The translations under genes and the position numbers were made by a program. 64,000 bases of DNA from an uncultured Pseudomonadota bacterium (GTDB lineage Bacteria > Pseudomonadota > Alphaproteobacteria > Rs-D84). The stretch's first letter is position 1; each line of letters opens with the position of its first letter. The notes below the pieces were generated by a model that saw nothing but the letters and a program-made list of their open reading frames with translations, was not told the origin of the DNA and searched no databases. This document shows, in pieces, positions 22,877-30,476 of this stretch. The stretch covers positions 6,852-70,851 of the forward strand of contig CADBVV010000007.1 of assembly GCA_902798205.1 (NCBI GenBank), in the 5' to 3' direction.

Positions 22877-24904
22877 ATGAATAAAGAAAAATCAGAAATT
22901 GTAAAACAGGTATCGCCATATCTCGAACGCTATAAAGATAAAATAGTGGTTGTGAAATATGGCGGTAATGCCATGATTAATGAAGAATTAAAACAACAGG
23001 TTATGGAAGACATTTCATTATTGTGGTCCATGGGGGTCAAAGTTGTTTTGGTTCATGGTGGTGGTCCTGAAATAAATTCTTTGATGGAAAGATTGGGACA
23101 TGTTCCGCAATTCATTGATGGGTTAAGAGTCACTGATAAAGAAACAGTTGATATTGTTCAAATGGTTTTGGCCGGCAAAGTCAACAAAGGTCTGGTAAAT
23201 CTGTTGGGCAAAAACGGCAGCAAAGCAATCGGTTTGTCTGGTATGGATGGCGGAATGCTGATGTGCAAACAAAAAGATGAAAGATTGGGTTTTGTTGGCG
23301 ATGTAGAAAAAGTCAACCCACAACCTATTCTTGATTTGATTGAAAAAGGTTATATACCTGTTATTTCAACTGTCGGGGCAGATGCAAAAGGCAATGTTTA
23401 CAACATTAATGGCGATACCGCTACTTCCTATATTGCGGGTGCATTAAATGCAGAAAGATTAATCATGATGACCGACATTGCTGGAATATTACGCGACAAA
23501 GATGATCCATCTACACTTATTTCTGAAATCTCTGTTTCTGAATCTGCGAAATTAAAAACTGACGGAATAATTTCTGGTGGCATGATACCAAAGGTTGAAT
23601 GTGCGGTTAAAGCCGTTAATGCAGGCGTTAATAATGTCGCCATCATAGATGGACGTATTCCTCATTCAATTCTTAAAGAATTGGCATCAGATAAAGGAAC
23701 AGGAACAATAATTACCAAGGATAAAAAAATGAATATTCAAGAAATGGATAAAAAATATATTGCATCAACTTATAACAGATTTCCTGTGACTATTGTTTCA
23801 GGCAAAGGTTCAATTGCTGTTGATGTAAACGGTAAAAAATATATTGATATGGGTTCTGGAATCGGTGTGACCAGTTTTGGTTACTGCGATGAAATTTGGC
23901 AAAACGCAATAAGTGAACAAATTCATCTGGTGCAACATACTTCTAATTTATATTATACAGAACCATGTGCAAAATTGGCTGAAATTTTGGCAAAAAAGAC
24001 AGGTATGTCAAAAGTGTTCTTTTCTAATTCTGGGGCGGAAGCAAACGAATGTGCAATCAAAGCAGCCAGAAAATATGCATCTGAAACAAAAGGTAAAGAT
24101 TGCTATAATATCGTAACACTTTGGAACGGTTTCCATGGACGCACATTGACAACCCTGGCCGCGACAGGTCAAGAACATTATCATGAACTTTTCCAACCTT
24201 TGACCCAAGGGTTTAAACATATCCATGTTGGCGATATCAACGAATTAAAATCTGTTGATCCAAAAACAACAGCCGCGATTATGATTGAATGCATCCAAGG
24301 CGAAGGTGGTGTAAACGTTCTGCCAAAAGAATATGTAAAAGCAATCGAAAATTATTGCAAACAAAATAATATTTTGTTGATTGTCGATGAAGTGCAAACC
24401 GGTAACGGAAGAACAGGTGAATTTTATTCATATATGAATTACGGTATTAAACCAGATATTGTAAGTACAGCAAAAGGACTTGCCGGTGGATTGCCTATGG
24501 GTGCAACAATGCTGGGTGAAAAAGTGAAAGATGTTTTTGCTTTTGGTGATCATGGGTCAACTTTTGGTGGCAACCCTGTTGCAGCAGCAGCAGCCGTTTC
24601 AATTGTGAACAGAATTGATTCAAAATTACTGGGTGATGTAAAACAAAAAGGAAAGTTTATAAAAGATTTCTTTCAAAACAATCCTGATGTTGAACAAATA
24701 TCTGGTATGGGTTTAATGGTCGGTATCAAACCTGCAAATAAACCAGCCGCAGAAGTTGTAAAACAATGTATGGAAAAAGGTGTTCTTTGCCTTACTGCGA
24801 AAGACAAGGTAAGATTGTTACCTGCCCTGAATATCCCATTGGATACATTAAAAGAAGCATTAGAAATAATAAAATCTTCAATGGCAAAAACACAAACACG
24901 ATAA
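22877..24904 (+). CDS. argB: Fused acetylglutamate kinase (ArgB) and acetylornithine aminotransferase (ArgD)
   Basis: Residues 1-284: VVKYGGNAM, VHGGGP, NINGD, GGMIPK. From Met285 (23729): SNSGAEANE, FHGRT, DEVQTG, AKGLAGG, HGSTFGGNP. Confidence 0.93.
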   Translation: MNKEKSEIVKQVSPYLERYKDKIVVVKYGGNAMINEELKQQVMEDISLLWSMGVKVVLVHGGGPEINSLMERLGHVPQFIDGLRVTDKETVDIVQMVLAGKVNKGLVNLLGKNGSKAIGLSGMDGGMLMCKQKDERLGFVGDVEKVNPQPILDLIEKGYIPVISTVGADAKGNVYNINGDTATSYIAGALNAERLIMMTDIAGILRDKDDPSTLISEISVSESAKLKTDGIISGGMIPKVECAVKAVNAGVNNVAIIDGRIPHSILKELASDKGTGTIITKDKKMNIQEMDKKYIASTYNRFPVTIVSGKGSIAVDVNGKKYIDMGSGIGVTSFGYCDEIWQNAISEQIHLVQHTSNLYYTEPCAKLAEILAKKTGMSKVFFSNSGAEANECAIKAARKYASETKGKDCYNIVTLWNGFHGRTLTTLAATGQEHYHELFQPLTQGFKHIHVGDINELKSVDPKTTAAIMIECIQGEGGVNVLPKEYVKAIENYCKQNNILLIVDEVQTGNGRTGEFYSYMNYGIKPDIVSTAKGLAGGLPMGATMLGEKVKDVFAFGDHGSTFGGNPVAAAAAVSIVNRIDSKLLGDVKQKGKFIKDFFQNNPDVEQISGMGLMVGIKPANKPAAEVVKQCMEKGVLCLTAKDKVRLLPALNIPLDTLKEALEIIKSSMAKTQTR

Positions 24905-27752: not shown

Positions 27753-28697
27753 TTATCTGATAAGCGTTTTTATATTCATATCCCAAAATATAGATAAGAC
27801 ACCACAAGCATTTTCAAAATCAGTCTTATCCACATTTGTTTTCATCTTGCAATAATATTCTTTAATTTCTGGTATTTCCATATTTCTGATTTTTCTAAAA
27901 ATCTTTCTTCCATTGTAAGACAGGTTTCCATATTCGGTTTTATATGTTTCACCAAAATCTATGCGTTTGCCATTTATGTAATTATCTTCACGTATTTCTG
28001 TGTGTGAAGTTTGATAAATAGTGCAATCTTCTGCACCCATAAACAAAACATTCATAGTATCTACAGGTTGATGCAATTTTTCTTCTTGCCATTTTGACAA
28101 CATGAAATTTCCACTAAATAAATTGGCCATATATACAGGGTTATTTCTTTTCGGTTCGCTTTTATTAGCACAAAAAGCCGTCATAATCTCAAACATAGCC
28201 CCATGCCCATAATCATATAATGCATACGGCGATAAATTTCTGAACACTTTTAATGCATAACTTACTTTCAATTCTGGGAAAGATATTCTATAAACATTTC
28301 CAGAAAGCCCACCTAGTTCACGATAAGCCATGTCATGCATTGGTAATAATATGGCCGTTTCCAAGATACATTTAGTATGAAATAATTTTTCCAAATCTTT
28401 TAGTTCGTATTCAATTTCATTACGTTCTGATAATTCTTCGCCTTTGTCCACAACAAAAAAATCCAACAATTCAAACATTTGTTTCGTTGTTTCAGATCTT
28501 TTATCTTTTTCTACAATTTTGCATAATTCAGGTGGCAAACAACCAATAAAATTTGAAATATCGCTTTTAAAAAAAGTATCGGACAAATCATAAAAGTTCA
28601 AAAGTTCAACCCCGTATCTTTTTACACTTTTTGTAAGATGTGTATGTTTGATACGTTGTTTTCTGTTCTCACACGAAGATAAAAATTTCTTTGTCAT
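27753..28697 (-). CDS. Protein-kinase-like fold protein (atypical)
   Basis: LGGLSGNVY, ALKVF, HTEIREDN and IDFG appear in canonical kinase order. Confidence 0.6.
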   Translation of the reverse strand: MTKKFLSSCENRKQRIKHTHLTKSVKRYGVELLNFYDLSDTFFKSDISNFIGCLPPELCKIVEKDKRSETTKQMFELLDFFVVDKGEELSERNEIEYELKDLEKLFHTKCILETAILLPMHDMAYRELGGLSGNVYRISFPELKVSYALKVFRNLSPYALYDYGHGAMFEIMTAFCANKSEPKRNNPVYMANLFSGNFMLSKWQEEKLHQPVDTMNVLFMGAEDCTIYQTSHTEIREDNYINGKRIDFGETYKTEYGNLSYNGRKIFRKIRNMEIPEIKEYYCKMKTNVDKTDFENACGVLSIFWDMNIKTLIR

Positions 28698-28703
28698 ACC
28701 AAT

Positions 28704-28731
28704 ATTATAGACAAATGAATGATATTGTCAA
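28704..28731 (-). promoter_or_regulatory. Sigma70-type promoter, probably giving a leaderless mRNA
   Basis: TTGACA (28726-28731), 16-nt spacer, TATAAT (28704-28709); the ATG begins at 28697. Confidence 0.7.
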
Positions 28732-28734
28732 TTT

Positions 28735-28914
28735 TTAATTTTCACATTTCAAATTATGTTTATAAATGTTACGTGCTAAATCATCACTGATATTTTCCCA
28801 ATCTGATGCATGTCCGTATAAAATATCACAATTACACGCCCTATTCTGTGATTGTGTATTTATCGCGCAAGATGCGACGAATGTCGCGAACACCAGTTTT
28901 ATAAACAGTTTCAT
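28735..28914 (-). CDS. Small lipoprotein, o-spanin (Rz1)-like; not in the supplied ORF track
   Basis: My translation (59 aa): MKLFIKLVFATFVASCAINTQSQNRACNCDILYGHASDWENISDDLARNIYKHNLKCEN. Lipobox VAS-C; overlaps the upstream gene by 74 bp in another frame. Confidence 0.72.
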   Translation of the reverse strand: MKLFIKLVFATFVASCAINTQSQNRACNCDILYGHASDWENISDDLARNIYKHNLKCEN

Positions 28915-29068
28915 TTATTACCCTTTCATTTATTTTCTGTTGTTGTGTTGTATTTATTTGGTTTTGCAAATATTGTTTTTCACATTGCGCAACACCAAGA
29001 CTTTTTCCATAAAAATATGCGCCAACAATTGTGGCGCACATCAAAACAATTAAATATATTTTTGTCAT
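28841..29068 (-). CDS. Small type II membrane protein, i-spanin (Rz)-like
   Basis: Single N-terminal TM helix (IYLIVLMCATIVGAYFYG) followed by a Gln-rich helical periplasmic part. Confidence 0.68.
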   Translation of the reverse strand: MTKIYLIVLMCATIVGAYFYGKSLGVAQCEKQYLQNQINTTQQQKINERVINETVYKTGVRDIRRILRDKYTITE

Positions 29069-29095
29069 TATTTTCTTGTCATTATTTTCCCCACA

Positions 29096-29124
29096 AAGAA
29101 ACCGCCATATTGGCGGTTCTTTTT
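29096..29124 (-). terminator. Intrinsic terminator after rho
   Basis: aaagaaaccgcca-tat-tggcggttctttt. Confidence 0.8.
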
Positions 29125-30447: not shown

Positions 30448-30476
30448 ATTATAGAATAAAAGAGAAAAAATGTCAA
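30448..30476 (-). promoter_or_regulatory. Consensus sigma70 promoter of rho
   Basis: TTGACA-17 nt-TATAAT on the minus strand. Confidence 0.85.

Follow-up and report, generated by a model that had tools for sequence, protein, structure and literature searches.

An overlapped spanin-type gene pair resident in the chromosomes of reduced-genome gut Alphaproteobacteria and its association with a T7-like head-tail module

Introduction

The overlapped arrangement of two-component spanins is represented by LysB/LysC of phage P2, by phage T5 and by the DFL12phi1 family, and lambda Rz/Rz1 is the prototype of the embedded arrangement; the survey of these proteins found periplasmic cysteines in 507 of 528 known systems (Kongari et al. 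2018, PMC6139136). Here we describe a pair of the overlapped type at positions 28735 to 29068 of a 64,000-nucleotide (nt) stretch of DNA, referred to below as the window (contig CADBVV010000007.1 of assembly GCA_902798205.1), from an uncultured alphaproteobacterium of the Rs-D84 lineage. The pair encodes a 75-amino-acid (aa) candidate inner-membrane subunit (i-spanin) and a 59-aa candidate outer-membrane lipoprotein (o-spanin), and it lies among housekeeping genes of the host. Spanins burst the outer membrane in the final second of lysis, and to our knowledge they have been described solely from phages and prophages. The chromosome of Escherichia coli K-12 holds spanin genes in cryptic prophages, namely rzpD/rzoD in DLP12, rzpR/rzoR in Rac and rzpQ/rzoQ in Qin.

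Lysis genes have also been described for gene transfer agents (GTAs), as the holin-endolysin pair of RcGTA in Rhodobacter capsulatus and as LypABC of the GTA of Caulobacter crescentus (PMC13236601). In the parts of the literature accessible to us, papers naming both a spanin and a GTA gave no sign of a GTA-linked spanin, and we found no earlier case there of a spanin connected with a GTA or of an orphan spanin shared by a whole family. The lineage of the host has been described as Alphaproteobacteria with genomes below 1 Mb from the guts of farm animals, thought to depend on partner cells (PMC12306168). The genome that contains the window is a 0.85-Mb assembly in 17 contigs, and this DNA has been seen in bovine and goat gut metagenomes.

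Results

Two overlapping reading frames of spanin type

An earlier note on this DNA had proposed that a 75-aa protein with one transmembrane helix is overlapped over 74 nt, in another frame, by a 59-aa lipoprotein, and that the two genes sit directly behind the terminator of rho. The open reading frames (ORFs) bear out every element of this description. The features of the locus are listed here, with the evidence in parentheses.

28841..29068, minus strand: i-spanin-like gene, 75 aa (ORF, hydropathy, phrog_1026, hhalign, AlphaFold2 [AF2] model)
28735..28914, minus strand: o-spanin-like lipoprotein gene, 59 aa (ORF, alignment, phrog_1275, hhalign, ratio of nonsynonymous to synonymous substitution rates [dN/dS])
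28841..28914, minus strand: dual-coding overlap of 74 nt, with the i-spanin C terminus in frame 0 and the o-spanin signal peptide and lipobox in frame +1
28921..28927, minus strand: Shine-Dalgarno-like GAAAGGG within the i-spanin gene, 6-12 nt 5′ of the o-spanin ATG
29091..29118, minus strand: intrinsic-terminator-like hairpin (GAACCGCC-AATAT-GGCGGTTTC) and T-rich tail of rho (fold energy)

The 59-aa ORF occupies the +1 frame relative to the 75-aa ORF on the minus strand, and the latter starts 54 nt past the stop codon of rho. The rho gene ends at 29123 and the hairpin at 29100..29118 indeed stands between it and the pair.

The sole hydrophobic segment of the 75-aa protein comprises residues 4-18 (mean Kyte-Doolittle value of 2.25) and is directly preceded by Lys3. 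A transmembrane helix is predicted for approximately residues 4-21, followed by a helical periplasmic domain, and the predicted topology is N-in/C-out in the inner membrane. The periplasmic Cys29 and the C-terminal DIRRxLRxKYTI are conserved, and the AF2 model contains helices at residues 2-58 and 60-72 (predicted local distance difference test score of 73). The 59-aa protein has a signal peptide and a lipobox (FVAS-C16) with Ala at +2 and no inner-membrane retention signal; beyond Cys16 it carries three more cysteines (27, 29 and 57) in the periplasmic part. Its conserved core reads YG..DW..ISDDLARNIYxHN..C, its C-terminal motif is ISDDLARNIYKHNLKC, and in the AF2 model an extended linker joins the signal helix to a small helical C-terminal domain. 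Both lgt and lspA were found in the host genome; together with the lipobox and Ala at +2, they predict that the protein is lipidated and sorted to the outer membrane.

Every structural and sequence feature that defines a two-component spanin was found in, or is predicted for, this pair, except for its location. No lysis cassette surrounds the genes; their neighbors are rho and kinase-like, arginase-fold and Cys-rich genes, and likewise in 22 congeners.

Both subunits belong to an alphaproteobacterial phage spanin family

The 75-aa protein matched phrog_1026 (E value of 1.9e-6) and the 59-aa protein matched phrog_1275, and both of these PHROG families are annotated as "Rz-like spanin." In a one-by-one scan of the genus homologues, phrog_1275 was matched by all 23 o-type proteins (best E value of 1.1e-10); phrog_1026 was matched by 16 of the 23 i-type proteins (best E value of 3.3e-8), and a few match other Rz-like families. 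We then surveyed the context of phrog_1275 in 200 genomes spread across the class. In the 16 positive genomes, the gene sits in classical lysis cassettes composed of an endolysin (Hydrolase_2, GH108, GH24, Amidase_2 or M15), often a holin, an i-spanin of 66-85 aa and an overlapped o-spanin. Comparison of the genus alignments with the spanins of the cassette prophages by hhalign returned 96.7% (E = 3.6e-10) for the o-spanins and 93% (E = 3.4e-7) for the i-spanins. The aligned columns cover the periplasmic domains as well as the signal sequences, spanning C..PIY..D..T/S..a+QI..HN in the o-spanin and G+..C ... D..+LR..(W/Y)T in the i-spanin.

Prophages of the same genus have spanins of this family too, and one of them holds the closest relative within a cassette of holin, i-spanin, o-spanin and endolysin. 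Those of G274, G253 and G006 carry an endolysin, an i-spanin and an o-spanin adjoining tail genes, and that of G268 carries a cassette of holin, i-spanin, o-spanin and M15 peptidase. The G268 prophage o-spanin has the PIYG..DW..IS core in common with the chromosomal o-spanin (BLASTP E = 2e-10), and in the o-spanin tree it falls within the clade of chromosomal copies with a support of 96/93. The i-spanin family has 622 protein clusters on record, nearly all of 74-75 aa.

Other collections returned little. Pfam, NCBIfam and PADLOC scans assigned no family either to the pair or to bona fide prophage members, tblastn of the pair against 50,697 phage records gave nothing meaningful, an IMG/VR scan with the o-spanin alignment yielded no relative, and a PDB profile search produced no match. 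Compared with viral structures (BFVD) in Foldseek, the o-spanin model matched nothing significantly, with a few annotated o-spanins at E > 0.3. On the strength of the sequence and profile comparisons, the locus qualifies as a genuine two-component spanin of overlapped architecture from the alphaproteobacterial phage family PHROG 1026/1275. The earlier note had read the pair as spanin-like from its layout, and a search with spanin profiles and BLAST was one check it proposed; the PHROG matches, the hhalign comparison with endolysin-adjoining prophage spanins and the G268 cassette now carry that reading.

It can be added that the o-spanin has 241 clusters on record against the 622 of the i-spanin, as would be expected if gene callers overlook the overlapped gene.

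The pair is conserved, syntenic and under selection in both frames

Of 24 close congeners, 22 have both frames open in the same arrangement. An independent sample drawn from the whole order yielded the o-spanin in 79 of the 82 genomes that represent the genus and in 7 of 10 from other genera within its family; some members of two further families have it as well. In 22 congeners the pair adjoins the same convergent arginase-fold and Cys-rich genes and usually lies right behind rho; where the upstream neighbor is not rho, it is a large secreted protein, rlmE or an ABC transporter. The gene order of rho, the pair and the Cys-rich gene is kept in sister genera. Across the genus, the identity of rho is 90-99%, that of the i-protein 34-71% and that of the o-protein 48-82%, and the locus must be old because the spanin proteins have diverged this far while rho has hardly changed. 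The identity ranks of the spanins correlated only moderately with those of rho or of the capsid gene described below (Spearman 0.3-0.55), because rho is nearly saturated in conservation; the clades of the o-spanin tree are more informative.

The details of the overlap are equally stable. In 22 of the 23 aligned genomes it measures exactly 74 nt and has an unchanged frame offset, which together with the 22 of 24 congeners that keep both frames open puts the pair far beyond chance. The o-spanin start is ATG in every genome (n = 23), and a purine-rich element of the GGA/GGAG/AAGG/AGGT type precedes it inside the i-spanin gene in 22 of 23, G011 having only AAAGAAGA. Cys16, Cys29 and Cys57 of the o-spanin are invariant in 23 homologues, the lipobox conforms in all of them and a third further cysteine is usual; Cys29 of the i-spanin is conserved in 22 of 23.

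The non-overlapped core of the o-spanin evolves with a dN/dS of 0.18. Within the overlap, dS is approximately halved, and the third-codon positions of each frame are frozen where they coincide with first or second positions of the other frame; at the lipobox segment, from +29 to +73 after the o-spanin ATG, third positions of both frames are nearly invariant. Since the third positions of the overlap are frozen and the dN/dS pattern agrees with this, both proteins are under selection. Conservation and dN/dS across related genomes had been put forward in the earlier note as a check, and the lipoprotein frame proved to be conserved and neither strain-specific nor decaying.

The housekeeping context, the presence of the o-spanin at a conserved locus in 79 of 82 genus species and the intact frames under purifying selection set the pair apart from the spanins of cryptic prophages. 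In G017 the pair is absent together with the Cys-rich neighbor, and this is compatible with either a clean deletion or an assembly gap. The pair has resided in the host chromosome, outside any prophage, since before the diversification of this reduced-genome family of gut Alphaproteobacteria. A domesticated module, as the earlier note had suggested, is therefore what the family-wide and syntenic occurrence and the purifying selection in both frames describe, and its alternative of a decaying prophage remnant is rejected on conservation, synteny and selection.

A second type of apparently orphan overlapped pair was found in another family of the order (G030, locus L086, 2483-2801). It encodes proteins of 69 and 64 aa of the type found in the G274/G253 prophages, occupies a different locus, has no endolysin nearby and may represent an independent domestication.

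A T7-like head-tail module with an endolysin lies on another contig

Because a spanin is inert until the wall is degraded, we searched for endolysins by comparing every ORF of the own genome with prophage lysis proteins in phmmer. Endolysin-like genes were found on a single contig, C4, where they include the first gene of a phage-like module.

C4, ~71245-84003, outside the window: T7-like head-tail module

The module opens with a Hydrolase_2-type endolysin and a holin-like gene with two transmembrane segments, followed by a scaffold gene, a Lys/Ala-rich gene and the major head protein (phrog_3437, E value of 2.6e-73), and continues with tail tubular proteins (phrog_394 and phrog_376), a fiber stub, an interrupted large terminase and a portal. 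The terminase is split into N- and C-terminal halves by dnaB, an XRE-like gene and a 214-aa gene on the opposite strand. In 38 of 41 relatives over all families of the order, the capsid gene is present at 65-98% identity, a conservation near that of rho, and about 36 of the 200 genomes sampled class-wide have it at 42-70% identity; within the order, the endolysin and the holin are retained in the module. The module looks domesticated and GTA-like. The search elsewhere in the genome for holin, endolysin and GTA genes that the earlier note had called for thus led to this module.

No lipoprotein or spanin gene was found inside the module at nine order-level loci or in the own genome. Among 20 class-level modules, the one with a spanin nearby is that of G113, a distant alphaproteobacterium, in which an amidase, an i-spanin and an o-spanin of the PHROG 1026/1275 family lie ~2 kb from the capsid gene of a rearranged module of the same type.

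Larger alphaproteobacterial genomes (class-level loci L100, L103, L108 and L112) carry a canonical form of the module, in which a conserved protein of ~100-140 aa with a transmembrane helix and a coiled coil (...KLEVAKSY...RIEAKLD) precedes the endolysin and a holin-like protein of at least 165 aa comes after it; no lipoprotein is present there. Contig C4 of the own genome also carries two endolysin-like genes outside the module. One is a stand-alone GH24 lysozyme (C4:109613-110113; phrog_7, E value of 1.3e-33), which is followed by a 113-aa lipoprotein (region 109227-110113). The other encodes a 325-aa membrane protein (C4:100761-101738) with an endolysin/transglycosylase-like C-terminal domain (phrog_873).

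Joint absences of the pair and the module within the family

We scored 92 genomes of the family for the o-spanin and the endolysin. The capsid gene was checked directly in the seven genomes lacking the o-spanin or the endolysin and in one control; in the other 84 genomes, presence of the module means an endolysin match alone. The distribution was as follows.

Module present, spanin present: 85 genomes
Module present, spanin absent: 3 genomes (G017, G285, G333)
Module absent, spanin present: 1 genome (G322, o-spanin)
Module absent, spanin absent: 3 genomes (G277, G298, G300)

Fisher's exact test of the association within the family gave P = 6e-4, with small numbers and uncorrected for phylogeny. 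The three double absences fall in three different genera, and each of these genomes is 97-98% complete; G259, a sister genome of G298 within its genus, carries the pair as well as the module. A functional link between the two would predict independent joint absences such as these three.

The pair is probably expressed by terminator read-through

The hairpin at 29100..29118 is GC rich (-15.5 kcal/mol, z = -2.9) and has T-rich tails on both strands. The terminator-like element ends 22 nt before the i-spanin ATG and therefore leaves no room for a separate promoter; the sole candidate found for the pair was a 10/12 match overlapping the i-spanin start codon. A hairpin and a T-run lie ~10-45 nt 5′ of the i-spanin ATG in 18 of 23 genomes, irrespective of the upstream gene. 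Since there is neither a promoter beyond that 10/12 match nor space for one, we favor read-through of the terminator, by which the pair would probably be expressed at a low level. Such expression would be compatible with spanin action, because lambda spanins accumulate harmlessly and act only once the wall is gone (PMC6139136). Positions 28739-28951 are matched at 93% identity by a 256-nt metatranscriptome contig of bovine-gut origin; this is a weak indication of transcription, as DNA carry-over is possible.

Genomic neighborhood

On one side of the pair are argC, argJ, an argB-argD fusion, rfbC, a NUDIX gene and genes for a 316-aa Cys-rich protein, an arginase-fold protein and a 314-aa kinase-like protein, and on the other are rho, an OmpA-family lipoprotein gene, lptC, lptB, eno and an M23 peptidase gene. 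Within ~8 kb of the pair, all housekeeping, no phage gene was found, and the endolysin-like genes are confined to another contig; the pair is orphan, as originally described. The fusion gene (window 22877-24904, plus strand) encodes 675 aa comprising an ArgB-like amino-acid kinase domain and an ArgD-like class-III aminotransferase domain within an argC-argJ-argBD cluster.

The 314-aa protein (27753-28697, minus strand) has kinase-like motifs (ALKV, an HxxxxxDN-like stretch and DFG) and no significant family match, and its gene follows the pair only in some congeners. Behind the pair of G276 (locus L091) stand three ORFs in tandem, 316-350 aa long and bearing an ALKV/VLKV-type motif. Perfect 12/12 sigma-70 promoters (TTGACA, a 16- to 17-nt spacer and TATAAT) were found at 28704-28731 and 30448-30476, both on the minus strand; the former lies directly past the o-spanin stop codon and faces the 314-aa gene, and the latter is upstream of rho. 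The 314-aa gene was considered as a lysis partner and ruled out, because it has its own consensus promoter, occurs only in some genomes and looks kinase-like.

Discussion

Our results place a phage-family spanin pair in the chromosome of a bacterial family, and we think it somewhat probable that this host-resident spanin completes in trans the lysis system that releases the GTA-like particles of the T7-like module. The 75-aa protein would insert into the inner membrane N-in/C-out and extend a helical stalk of ~50 residues into the periplasm, and the 59-aa protein would receive its lipid through Lgt and LspA and move to the outer membrane. The two subunits may bind through their conserved C-terminal parts, with disulfides between the conserved periplasmic cysteines probably locking the complex. 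Pre-loaded into the envelope by read-through expression, such complexes would pass through the peptidoglycan and do no harm as long as the wall is whole. Once an endolysin removes the wall, they would collapse and fuse the inner and outer membranes to complete lysis. As no holin or endolysin lies beside the pair, the trigger would have to act in trans, and the likeliest one would be the Hydrolase_2-type endolysin and the two-transmembrane holin-like gene heading the T7-like module, so that the pair would provide the outer-membrane step in the release of GTA-like particles. Two of the uses considered in the earlier note fared differently here: particle release of the GTA kind gains from the module with its endolysin and holin and from the joint absences, whereas nothing supports an export of the Cys-rich proteins.

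A more specific form of this proposal, which we offer tentatively and somewhat doubt, makes the pair a dedicated trans-acting outer-membrane release factor of T7-derived GTA-like particles, within a lysis system split across the chromosome. With the same reserve, we can imagine the trigger to be kept with the particle genes and the fusion device to be pre-loaded from a housekeeping transcript, the parts being inherited and lost together.

Several observations weigh against a role in particle release. The module is intact in G017, G285 and G333 although the pair is missing, G322 has the o-spanin but no module, and in the other families of the order most genomes have the module and no detectable spanin of this family; 19 of the 20 class-level modules likewise have no spanin nearby. 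The coupling is only correlative, its statistic takes no account of phylogeny, the pair and the module are unlinked, and a shared regulatory signal was not found between them. With a terminator immediately upstream, expression of the pair is possibly very low. The predicted periplasmic parts of ~53 and ~43 residues are far shorter than those of lambda Rz/Rz1 and may not span a wide periplasm, though the phage members of the family are equally short. The N-terminal part of the i-spanin (transmembrane segment and linker) is fast-evolving, with a dN/dS of 0.62 at saturated dS. Moreover, "Rz-like spanin" is a name given by PHROG annotation, and the spanin function of the PHROG 1026/1275 family is a prediction.

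Doubts about the nature and the integrity of the pair itself carry little weight. That the two ORFs are an unrelated small membrane protein and a lipoprotein, resembling spanins by composition through a transmembrane helix and a lipobox, would agree with the lack of Pfam, NCBIfam, PDB or significant BFVD matches, with the empty BLAST results in the phage and IMG/VR collections and with the modest PHROG E values of the window's own proteins. We regard this as very improbable, since the profile matches reach over the periplasmic domains, each partner matches the corresponding subunit family (all 23 o-spanin homologues do) and a same-genus prophage o-spanin is similar by BLASTP (E = 2e-10) and falls in the same clade. 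The pair could also be thought of as the functionless remnant of a decayed prophage awaiting deletion, as it is phage derived and the rest of the lysis cassette is gone. The probability of this is close to negligible: the genes are intact and syntenic in ~96% of the sampled genus species and in sister genera despite identities down to 30-50%, conservation extends to the start codons, the lipobox, the cysteines and the length of the overlap, the o-spanin core evolves at a dN/dS of 0.18 with both frames constrained, and the genomes of this lineage, at ~0.9 Mb, are ~90% coding (PMC12306168).

The rivals on function deserve more attention. The pair might have a non-lytic envelope role independent of the module, as a permanent tether between the inner and outer membranes, in vesicle formation or as a fusion device with which these metabolically dependent bacteria make contact with partner cells. 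Expression, if any, by housekeeping read-through instead of a lysis-type late promoter would fit such a role, as would the position among envelope genes (the OmpA-family lipoprotein gene, lptC, lptB and the M23 peptidase gene), the three genomes with the module and without the pair, the one with the reverse, and the partner-dependent lifestyle suggested for the lineage (PMC12306168). Nevertheless, no spanin is known to have a non-lytic role, the three independent joint absences would be unexpected if pair and module were unrelated, and the o-spanin keeps the conserved core of the lytic phage copies of the same genus, so that we consider this role unlikely. Alternatively, the host spanin might serve another lysis trigger, in altruistic or abortive lysis upon infection, with the GH24 lysozyme of C4, or for infecting phages that lack a spanin of their own and exploit the pair. 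The two endolysin-like genes outside the module (C4:109613-110113 and C4:100761-101738) and the existence of prophages in the genus lend this some substance; on the other hand, PADLOC gave no match, the prophages of the genus carry their own spanins and the joint absence with the module would be left unexplained, which makes another trigger quite unlikely. Release of GTA-like particles in trans would account for the joint absences and is the reading that we prefer.

Vertical inheritance of a spanin pair throughout the history of a bacterial family whose genomes measure ~0.9 Mb implies that these bacteria themselves make use of outer-membrane disruption or fusion. Together with the order-wide T7-like module, the pair would form a complete and testable lysis pathway (holin, endolysin and spanin) for a possibly new GTA-like lineage in abundant uncultured gut bacteria of livestock. 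If this is true, the pair would be the first spanin with a link to a GTA and a case of a phage lysis system split across the chromosome. Independently of its use, the pair is a compact natural case of two proteins kept under selection in the same 74 nucleotides, and it illustrates how gene callers miss an overlapped o-spanin.

Compared with described systems, the proposed role resembles that of the GTA lysis genes, which are host-encoded, phage-derived and release domesticated particles; RcGTA is of the HK97 siphovirus type, whereas the particle module here is T7-like and a candidate GTA. The pair itself is built like the overlapped phage spanins, with a predicted class II inner-membrane protein that has a helical periplasmic domain, a predicted small outer-membrane lipoprotein, an o-spanin start in the +1 frame within the 3′ end of the i-spanin gene and periplasmic cysteines in both subunits. 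Unlike them, it stands outside any lysis cassette, phage or prophage and is inherited vertically by the host. Lambda Rz and Rz1 have 153 and 60 aa, compared with 75 and 59 aa here, and the small helical C-terminal domain predicted for the o-spanin contrasts with the proline-rich unstructured chain of Rz1; no sequence similarity to the Pfam families Rz, Rz1 and LysC was detectable. With the prophage spanins of phrog_1026/phrog_1275, including those of the same genus (loci L047-L060, L084, L085 and L088), the pair has homology of both subunits, overlapped layout, size class (prophage i-spanins of 66-85 aa), motifs and cysteine positions in common. Those copies adjoin an endolysin and often a holin among tail or head genes, whereas the pair described here lies between rho and other housekeeping genes and forms a clade of its own with a distinctive DW..ISDDLARNIYRHN core. 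Finally, like the cryptic-prophage spanins of E. coli K-12, it persists in the chromosome without a functional phage; the E. coli copies remain inside recognizable defective prophages with lysis genes and are specific to strain or species, whereas this pair is family-wide and its prophage context is gone.

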